In this document: piece by piece, positions 53,601 to 56,600 of the stretch
Layout: the number at the start of each line of letters is the position of its first letter
How positions within the stretch are numbered: the stretch's first letter is position 1
Assembly (NCBI GenBank): GCA_963730935.1
Contig: CAVSTP010000003.1
Span: forward strand, 224,001-288,000
Direction of reading: 5' to 3'
Length of the DNA: 64,000 nucleotides
Origin: an uncultured Nitrospiraceae bacterium
GTDB taxonomy: Bacteria; Nitrospirota; Nitrospiria; Nitrospirales; Nitrospiraceae
Program-made: the position numbers

Positions 53601-56600
53601 ATCGCGAAATTCTGTTGAAAGACGGTCACGTGTTGAGCGACCGGGCGACGAGGCGGACGTCGGGGACCGTGGAGGTCTGAATGCCGGCCTTTGTGTGGAT
53701 GACCGTGCTGACGGCGTTGCGCATATTGGGGCGCAATCGTCTGCGCGCCGGCCTGACCATGCTCGGCATCGTCATCGGCGTTGGAGCAGTGATTGCCATG
53801 GTCGGCATTGGGGAAGGCGCGAAGCGGGCGGTGCAGGCGCAAATCGCGACGATGGGCACCAACGTCATCATCATCTGGCCAGGCGCCACGACAGTCAGCG
53901 GTGTGCGCAGCAGCCAAGGCGGCGCCGTGACATTAACTGTTGCCGATGCGTTGGATCTGAGAAAGAAGATTCCCCTCCTTGCGGAAACGGGATGGGCGAA
54001 ACGCGACGCCATGCAGATTGTCAACGGGAACAAGAACTGGAACGGTCCGATCAACGGGATCTCTCCCAGTTATCTCACGATTCGCGACTGGTCGTTTTCG
54101 AGCGGGGGACCGTTCACCCAGGCGGATCTCGACAGCGCCGCCCGCGTTGCACTCATCGGCCAGACCATCGTAGACAACCTGTTCGATGAAGGCGAAGAGC
54201 CGGTGGGGGCCGTCATTCGCATCAAGAATGTGCCGTTTCGTGTGATCGGGGTCCTCTCTCCGAAGGGTCAATCGGCCCAGGGCTCAGATCAGGATGACGT
54301 GATCTTTATTCCCTTCACGACAGCGGAGCGCAAGGTGTTCGGCACGGCGTTTCTGGGCTCGATCGGAGCGATGTTTGCGTCCACCGACAGGGCGGAGGAC
54401 CTCCCTGAGGCCGTCGATCGCATTCGCGAAGTGCTCCGCGCGCGCCATCGGCTGCAAGGTGAGCAGAACGACGACTTCACGGTAAAAACGCAGGTGGACA
54501 TCGGTCGCGTGCAGGAAGGCACCGGCCAGACGCTGACGATGATGCTCTTTTCCATTGCGTCCGTCTCTCTGCTGGTAGGGGGGATCGGCATCATGAATAT
54601 CCTGCTTGTATCCGTCACCGAGCGGACAAGAGAGATCGGCGTCCGCATGGCCGTGGGCGCCAAGCGCGGTCATGTGCTGATGCAGTTCCTCATCGAGGCC
54701 ATGACCTTGAGCCTGCTAGGAGGAGTGTTGGGGATCGTGCTGGGCGTGATTGGTGCAAAACTGACGACGGTGGTGGCCGGCTGGCCCACGGTCATCTCGA
54801 TCGACGTGATTGTCATGGCGTTTGGGTTTTCTCTCGCGGTCGGACTCTTTTTTGGCCTGTATCCCGCCAACAAGGCCTCGCGGCTCAACCCCATCGAAGC
54901 GTTGCGATACGAGTGACTGCGGCAGATCTACGGTAGGTCTCCGCCGACTACGAAAGGGTTGCCGGCGTGAGGAGGACTTCGATCCGTGGGTTTTCCCGGT
55001 CGACGTGCTTATACAAGTGCGTTTCGACAATCCGGTTATCGTTCAAGCCGAGACCTTCGCAAAGCGCATCCTGCGCAATCTTCAGCCCCCCATCCACATC
55101 ACGCCGCAGAGCGGACGTAAAATAGAAGCGGATCGATAGAGCGAGACACGTCGACTGCAGATGGGACAAGAGGGCAGTGCGATGAGGGACTGCTGTCAGG
55201 GTCAACCAGACGAGCTCCCCCACCTGTGCCTTGTACGAACGTCCGGTCGATGAGAGCAGGCGGCGCCCGTTCACGGTCGCGTATTGATGATTGATGCTGG
55301 GCGGAACAGGCAATGTGAAGGCGATCGACTGCTGTTCCGGATCGAGCTGCATCGGACGGTCTGTTGATTGAGACGGCGACAGCGGCCGCTTGGCAGCCCG
55401 TCCCCGTCCGGCAACAGGAGCGTAGAGGTGAAGCCCAACAAGATGAAGCGGAAGTTTGGAAGCCGGGATCGGAATCGGTCGGCGGTATGTGGGCATAGCG
55501 TTCGCGAGCGTTCAGGAATGAAAATTCAGACGCTCAGTGGAGGCAAAGGAAGCAAATTCGGGAGGGTGGCTCAACGCTGACCTAGAGAAGATTGAGAATT
55601 TTGGCCATATTCTGTTCGTAGCGGTCTTCGGAGCGCGCAATATAGCGCCGCCATTCGCTGGGGTTCCAGATCTCCATACGATGGTAGAGACCGACGAGAA
55701 TGATTTCCTGATCCTCGTCCAGCGGTACGAGCTTTCGCAGCTTTCCCGGGATCAAGATCCGGCCAGCCTTGTCGATTTCTGAAGTCCCTGCTTCCGACAC
55801 CACGAAATGCATGAAGAGCCGGCTTTGCTCCTCATCGAGCGTGTTCTTCGTCCGTTCGAGCACCTGCTCCCATTCTTTCATCGAATAGATGAGGATGGAT
55901 TCTTCCGGGCCTTTTAAAAAGACCACGGATTGTCCTTGCGATTCGATCTGCTCCCGAATGGGCGAGGGAACAATGAACCGCCCCTTTTCATCGAGCTTGC
56001 AGTGGTATTCGCCGGCGAACATCAGTGCCAGGTTTCCTTCACGACACCATCGGACGTCTGGTGCGCTCTCGGATCCACTGCTCCAGATCCGAACGTACGA
56101 ATCGCCATTCTTTCCCAAGCTTGAAGGCGGGTATCTGATGGTTCTGAAGATAGCGGTAGAGTGTCCGTTGGGTAATCTTCAGGTAGCGGCACGTCTCCTC
56201 CGCCGTCATCAATTCGCTGTTGGGCTCTCTTACCATTGGACAACCATCTGAAGATGGTCATAGGGGGTACCGCTCCAGGATTGCCATGAGGGTAAGAAAA
56301 TCAAGGACATATGTCAAGCGAAATTATATGACAATGTATGTCACATACCCTCAGATTCGTCCAGTTCAGAATGATTTTCATCTGAAGAGTCAACGGCTTC
56401 TGCCATTTCATGGCTGACGTCTTCGCCCATTTCGTTGCCCATATGCTTCATCAGGCGTTCCACGTCGGCCGGATTCTGTTCGTCAAAGCCGGCTAACGCC
56501 TCGTCGTCGGCGAAGGATTCCATCCTCGCCTCGTCTGATTTCGGAGCAGCGAAACGGGACAGCAAGCGTTCGAGCCGGGGACTTTGGCAATGCGAACACA

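Follow-up and report, generated by a model that had tools for sequence, protein, structure and literature searches.

RusA as the likely housekeeping Holliday-junction resolvase of Nitrospirales, an order that keeps RuvAB and lacks RuvC

Main finding

A single-copy chromosomal gene of the RusA family is, with a probability that we put at about three in four from its distribution and sequence, the housekeeping Holliday-junction resolvase of Nitrospirales, where it would have displaced RuvC. The gene was studied in a 64-kb stretch of an uncultured Nitrospiraceae genome (positions 224001–288000 of contig C3; hereafter the window, with coordinates counted from its first base). The first-pass annotation had already proposed this role; the mirror-image distribution of RusA and RuvC in a far larger sample now supports it, the activity itself being what we infer. 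Public records already label the window gene RusA, and the literature searched (few subscription papers covered) held neither an account of RuvC replacement by RusA in Nitrospira or Nitrospirales nor the combination of RuvAB with RusA.

Distribution of RusA, RuvC, and other resolvases

The genome under study (99.89% complete, 6 contigs) contained one RusA copy. Profile searches agreed with the first-pass annotation that it possesses ruvA and ruvB and is devoid of ruvC, recU, and hjc: (i) neither Pfam nor an HMM built on 12 RuvC sequences from outgroups revealed a RuvC (best E 1.8 with the HMM); (ii) RecU was detected neither in this genome nor in the 121 genomes of the order sample (0/121); and (iii) the only Hjc match (E 0.008) was a UPF0102/YraN protein. 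Across the same 121 genomes, Hjc gave three weak matches: a YraN protein and a pair of long proteins similar to each other, of which one was scanned and assigned to the DndB family. Two genomes of the order were seen to have YraN; the genome under study additionally carried RecG and YqgF.

The presence of RusA and RuvC was compared across 201 genomes of the class. RusA was present in 130/130 Nitrospirales genomes and in 0/71 genomes outside the order, while RuvC was present in 1/130 and 66/71, respectively; 30 further Nitrospirales genomes yielded no RuvC, giving 1/160 for the order. The single in-order RuvC match was partial (E 6e-5), lay beside a YqaJ phage exonuclease, and was of prophage type. 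RuvC loss and RusA gain, previously described as mirror images, thus kept that relation in the enlarged sample. Since the sampled genomes are kin, this pattern is to be read as one evolutionary event rather than as 160 independent ones.

RusA occurred in 120 of the 121 genomes of the order sample, i.e., in family f1 (47/47, plus the genome under study), f2 (47/47), f3 (20/21), and f45 (5/5), with imperfect copies in G421 (frameshifted) and G440 (split across two contigs). An f3 genome lacking both RusA and RuvC had been listed as a weakness of the proposal: one f3 miss did recur (G426, 92% complete), but this genome also lacked mraZ and recG, which indicates assembly gaps as the reason for its missing RusA. 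Weak in-order Pfam scores raised the question of whether the absence of RusA from outgroups was an artefact of sensitivity. The order's own profile scored about 180–230 bits on full-length in-order copies and found nothing credible outside the order, with no match in eight class genomes and a single weak, stop-containing match in 217 other genomes of the phylum; this explanation was rejected. The RuvC counts cover class genomes, and the 217 other phylum genomes were searched with the RusA profile.

YqgF, which had been named as a possible sharer of the role, was present in f1 (46/47) and f45 (5/5) and absent from f2 (0/47) and f3 (0/21), which reduces the weight of this objection. At the usual yqgF site in f2/f3 (L258–L262), alaS abutted mltG in 5/5 loci, and yqgF was cleanly missing. 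As no YqgF occurred in f2 and f3 (0/68), these two families were left with RusA as the sole family of dedicated resolvases detected.

The ruvC site and retention of RuvA and RuvB

The gene order yebC–ruvA–unknown ORF–ruvB was found in the genome under study, with 17 bp between the yebC stop and the ruvA start, in line with the earlier remark that ruvA directly follows yebC. In the outgroups, the yebC–ruvA gap measured 506–664 bp and was filled by ruvC in 7/7 loci, while in Nitrospirales it measured −4 to 148 bp in 22/23 measurable loci. The one remaining order locus had a 474-bp gap containing no RuvC match, and one further locus stopped at a contig edge. This comparison of gene order shows a clean deletion of ruvC from the yebC–ruvA interval in Nitrospirales.

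The retention of RuvAB was borne out by RuvA in 23/23 Nitrospirales genomes and by full RuvB frames in 21/21 order regions; RuvB was also found in 5/5 f2/f3 genomes, and in f2 ruvB was unlinked from ruvA, yet present. Loss of RuvA octamer residues as an adaptation was considered and rejected: E127 and D130 were kept, and position 122 was small in both the order and the outgroup, so no loosening of RuvA was visible. In RuvB, 14 positions were invariant across the order and differed from those of four outgroups; residues 84–93 read SGLVLxHAGD in the order versus SGPAxExPGD in the four outgroups. These order-fixed changes, drawn from a comparison with four outgroups only, are a thin lead toward a possible coupling with RusA. 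A cysteine-rich, secreted-looking ORF (L002:581-1081, minus strand, contig C2) with no Pfam match lay between ruvA and ruvB in this genome and in 10/10 other f1 loci examined.

The rusA gene

The features of the rusA locus are listed in Table 1. The catalytic core matched Pfam RusA PF05866 with E 3.5e-7 (31.3 bits versus a cut-off of 22.8) and PHROG 34 with E 9e-15, and scored under the cut-off of 200 of the E. coli-specific NCBIfam RusA model. The sequence alignment to E. coli RusA 1q8r, claimed at E 3e-6, was reproduced at E 3.3e-6. A structure of the core was predicted from 31 relatives, and the top seven Foldseek matches of this model were all RusA chains (E 1e-9 to 3e-7), including 1q8r at E 1.1e-9 and TM 0.71/0.79.

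Table 1. Features of the HTH–mraZ–rusA locus and its comF-side flank in the window
Feature	Coordinates	Strand	Description
rusA, full probable gene	54948..55496	−	182 aa; RusA core preceded by a basic tail (~48–55 residues) predicted to be disordered
RusA catalytic core	54948..55352	−	134-aa open frame; PF05866; 1q8r alignment; model pLDDT 89.3
mraZ	55582..56022	−	146 aa from likely ATG; PF02381 and TIGR00242 over cut-off; sole copy in the genome
Small HTH_17 (excisionase-like) gene	56039..56236	−	65 aa; PF12728 E 2.5e-17; dN/dS 0.10
Predicted sigma-70 promoter of HTH–mraZ–rusA	56289..56317	−	TTGACA, 17 nt, TACCCT
Inverted site, candidate HTH operator	56329..56343	none	TGACA-N5-TGTCA; upstream of −35
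FmdB-type zinc-ribbon gene	56341..56706	−	Variable flank
comF-family gene	56687..57505	−	Flank in f1–f3; non-adjacent in f45

Residues R84, D85, D87, K91, and D105 of the window protein were equivalent to R69, D70, D72, K76, and D91 of E. coli RusA, respectively, while G88 and N104 stood at the positions of N73 and D90. Conservation of the five catalytic residues, formerly counted in 11/11 loci, extended to the motif RDxDxxxK plus the D91 equivalent in 124/124 Nitrospirales loci. The glycine remarked upon at the N73 position proved typical of the order (Gly in 121/124 loci, Ser in 3/124), and the D90 position was Asn in all; the R69 position was Gln in one metagenomic protein, P0138. The portions of PMC10956419 and PMC1636454 at hand place the cation site of RusA at D70, D72, and D91, describe R69 as DNA-binding and N73 as a DNA phosphate contact, and give N73 a minor catalytic role; the introduction of PMC1636454 lists D90, although D91 is in its cation site. 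Median dN/dS values (40 loci) were 0.10 for rusA, 0.05 for mraZ, and 0.14 for comF, and the GC content of rusA was like that of its flanks. Judged by profile, predicted fold, residues, and dN/dS, the window gene encodes an intact member of the RusA nuclease family, and by analogy with E. coli RusA it would act as a Mg2+-dependent homodimer nicking opposite strands of a four-way junction.

The coordinates given before, 54948–55352, delimited the RusA core correctly and left out an N-terminal tail. The last 45 codons upstream of the core, collected from 121 loci, contained two stops in 5436 codons, compared with 234 and 108 stops in the other two frames over the same stretch; the frame was open and under selection up to ATG 55496, so the shorter coordinates miss the tail. 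The gene probably starts at this ATG, which would give a 48-residue basic tail. The tail had a dN/dS of ~0.5, was predicted to be disordered (pLDDT 44–59), and was short in family f45. An R-x-T-S-Y-R-like motif was present in it at 83/121 loci and was degenerate in this genome. The aligned RusA relatives from Chloroflexota and Abditibacteriota mostly started close to the core.

The mraZ–rusA locus and its promoter

That the single RusA gene sits in a fixed locus after mraZ was upheld: mraZ lay immediately upstream of rusA in 122/124 loci, one of the two exceptions being a second copy and the other a contig end, and likewise in 75/79 loci of a further, partly overlapping set. The HTH_17 gene, which comes first in the probable transcription unit, was present in most f1 loci and in the f3 loci, and was not found in the f2 and f45 loci.

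The sequence TTGAC[AT]-N16-18-TANNNT occurred upstream in 98/105 loci, and a stricter promoter scan gave 0 sites; this conservation suggests that the HTH–mraZ–rusA unit probably has a sigma-70 promoter and that the three genes may be co-transcribed. In RNA runs (4/22; all contigs), pieces overlapped rusA in X2 and X8 and, at its edge only, in X1; the X2 piece ran on into the convergent gene, so that DNA carry-over is possible. The inverted site, with at most one mismatch, occurred in 91/105 HTH-bearing loci and was weak or absent by eye in loci without the HTH gene; it is a candidate operator of the HTH protein. Its exact sequence occurred five times in the genome; apart from the copy at this locus, none lay close to an evident gene start. 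The HTH_17 gene and the inverted site were lost together in several lineages. The site was also considered as an SOS box and rejected, on the weak ground that it was absent upstream of a few motif-picked repair genes, recA not being among them. Elsewhere in the genome, an HTH-peptidase (contig C3, 840916–841494), LexA-like by motif only, had at its start the palindrome GTAACC-N3-GGTTAC, of which this was the single exact copy.

The surroundings of mraZ and rsmH were compared between the order and its outgroups. In the outgroups, mraZ was followed by an RsmH-like gene (assigned by motif) in 23/23 loci, with GTGGG repeats in 20/23, and these repeats resemble the MraZ boxes in the part of PMC8475190 consulted. 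In Nitrospirales, rsmH still had a promoter and TGG repeats in front in 6/6 loci, with no mraZ within 1.5 kb. As the promoter and repeats persist before rsmH and mraZ is gone, mraZ has moved next to rusA without taking its operator along; the same remnants rule out that rusA captured the old mraZ promoter. From its relocated position, MraZ would act in trans on the division cluster. This cluster begins at rsmH and retains a TTGAC/TA promoter with TGG repeats of 10-bp period, as observed at 135531–135620 of contig C2 (L293) and at L520–L524.

Two further observations concern the window upstream of a MacAB-type transporter: a BacA/UppP-like membrane gene (assigned by eye; 49630–50925, minus strand) and an ORF resembling a coiled-coil lipoprotein, whose C-terminus carries a helix-hairpin-helix domain (PF12836; 50746–51462, plus strand).

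Relatives and origin of RusA

Relatives were collected by profile search of 1.84 billion proteins. Chromosomal RusA relatives were found in Chloroflexota and Abditibacteriota, with 40–50% identity, a common RRDxDGGLK motif, and purN, guaA, purD, ftsH, and recA as neighbours. The statement that RusA is elsewhere mostly a prophage gene thus remains apt for RusA in general and does not hold for this subfamily; the Nitrospirales rusA likewise had housekeeping flanks, not those of a prophage. In Abditibacteriota (L321:2743-4591 and L319:693-4603), rusA lay directly after recA in one genome, belonging to Abditibacteriales, while a second genome had a HerA-like ATPase upstream of it. RuvC accompanied this sister RusA in 35/36 Chloroflexota genomes (36 genomes out of 80 loci; 34/35 without the unpublished G459) and in 5/5 Abditibacteriota genomes (one partial), and the sister RusA was patchy in a Chloroflexota sample (23/201 genomes, including the unpublished G642). 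An independent RusA gain with RuvC loss was not found in other phyla, the Chloroflexota and Abditibacteriota carriers keeping RuvC. Because the sister subfamily coexists with RuvC, the RusA subfamily is not only a RuvC substitute, and its co-occurrence suggests that the sister RusA has a job that RuvC does not cover.

A tree of 59 rows and 149 columns was built, thinned from a 122-row quick tree with fragments and the longest branches omitted. The RusA copies of the order formed one clade (87/78; 18/19 at 97/92), two second copies from f2 genomes adjoined it (85/81), and the Chloroflexota–Abditibacteriota clade was separate (99/91); a donor inside Chloroflexota was therefore unsupported. The second, tail-less f2 copies lay in element-like blocks (L057:2423-7211 and L295:530-7606) with DUF3150, a primase, and a beta-clamp-like gene, the L295 block additionally having HU-like and HTH_17-like genes. 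From these gene contents, the copies look like parts of an integrated element, and they may either be related to the donor or have been captured from the host, two origins that the tree cannot separate. The order's own profile had no match in IMG/VR, and viral relatives retrieved with a broader profile showed no more than 34% identity across almost the full length, those in INPHARED no more than 33%; a recent phage donor was rejected, no close viral relative having been found in either database. A metagenomic protein, P0122 (288 aa; 18-member cluster), contained two tandem RusA domains and is a possible single-chain dimer.

Discussion

In E. coli, as stated in the excerpts of PMC2628435 and PMC2265524 that were available, RuvA masks junctions from RusA, and RusA cannot act where RuvA is present and RuvC is absent. 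The chief obstacle to the finding, and also the chief reason for interest in it, is this block. In the proposed course of events, the ancestor of the order would have gained rusA beside a relocated mraZ and would have deleted ruvC from a yebC–ruvC–ruvA–ruvB operon. Different arrangements may be envisaged for the present-day pathway. The one favoured, tentatively and at somewhat less than even odds, is uncoupled: RuvAB or RecG would move the junction, and RusA would cut once RuvA leaves a face free. A coupled RuvAB–RusA complex, conceived by analogy with RuvAB–RecU, is ranked second and regarded as doubtful. Somewhat less likely again is a third kind of bacterial resolvasome, in which RusA, through its conserved basic tail and the order-specific RuvB changes, would be adapted to cutting RuvAB-held junctions, a thing of which E. 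coli RusA is incapable, and would be co-transcribed with a relocated MraZ acting in trans as repressor of the division cluster; if this were true, one switch would couple junction resolution to cell division.

The same masking by RuvA would fit a different role, which we consider unlikely: RusA might be an accessory nuclease of branched DNA (D-loops, forks, flaps, or transformation intermediates) and not the main resolvase, with junctions being removed by YraN, by YqgF where present (f1 and f45), through dissolution driven by a helicase, or by a nuclease not yet recognised. The coexistence of the sister subfamily with RuvC in Chloroflexota and Abditibacteriota points in this direction, but the sister gene is patchy there, while RusA is near universal in the RuvC-less order. 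According to the accessible part of PMC3485210, the RusA-like G44P of phage SPP1, also N-terminally extended, cuts D-loops too. Certain YqgF proteins cut junctions, and YqgF is described as essential in several bacteria (PMC11466669, in part), yet f2 and f3 have none. The comF gene flanking the locus in f1–f3 would suit the accessory role, but it is not adjacent in f45, and a conserved promoter separates it from mraZ–rusA.

Far less probable still is that RusA is a weak or dead junction binder, or a passenger of the mraZ rearrangement whose match with ruvC loss is coincidental. The changed N73 and D90 positions favour such a reading, as does the fact that rusA gain, ruvC loss, and the mraZ move fall on the same branch and are statistically inseparable. 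Against it stand the D70/D72/K76/D91 equivalents kept at every locus, the low dN/dS of the gene, and its persistence in single-contig genomes of 2.1 Mb from which yqgF, too, has been lost. The housekeeping resolvase thus remains our preferred reading of RusA.

Nitrospirales RusA resembled E. coli RusA (DLP12 prophage; 1q8r and 2h8c) in fold (TM 0.71–0.83; 24% structural identity) and in R69/D70/D72/K76/D91, and differed from it in N73 (Gly or Ser), D90 (Asn), and the basic N-terminal tail. It also differed from its sister subfamily, a separate and patchy clade coexisting with RuvC and having no mraZ link, in being linked to mraZ. The RusA of Aquifex aeolicus, the subject of a 2002 study by Sharples and co-workers, lies outside a prophage. 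It is a cellular RusA shown to cut junctions, as far as the passage of PMC10956419 goes, but A. aeolicus lacks RuvAB (PMC1193525, in excerpt), whereas Nitrospirales keep both RuvA and RuvB, a state fixed across the order. In E. coli, rusA is a cryptic gene carried by a prophage, and its product is blocked by RuvA in the cited extracts, whereas in Nitrospirales rusA is a core gene in single copy, with a conserved predicted promoter of its own. A parallel in arrangement is the RuvAB–RecU of Firmicutes, where RuvAB is likewise kept with an unrelated nuclease instead of RuvC; the survey giving this parallel (PMC1193525, in the portion at hand) matches RuvAB with either RuvC or RecU and leaves RusA out of account, calling it rare and tied to prophages. 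RecU differs in fold and is a binding partner of RuvB (PMC8583203, in excerpt), while Nitrospirales have no RecU and a RusA–RuvB contact would be hypothetical.

The cellular RusA subfamily spans three phyla, and two Nitrospirales families lack YqgF, which is described as essential in several bacteria. Throughout the order, nitrite oxidisers and comammox Nitrospira included, the condition that does not work in E. coli is a permanent one, namely RuvAB and RusA without RuvC, which makes Nitrospirales a natural system for learning by what route a resolvase gains access to junctions bound by RuvA.
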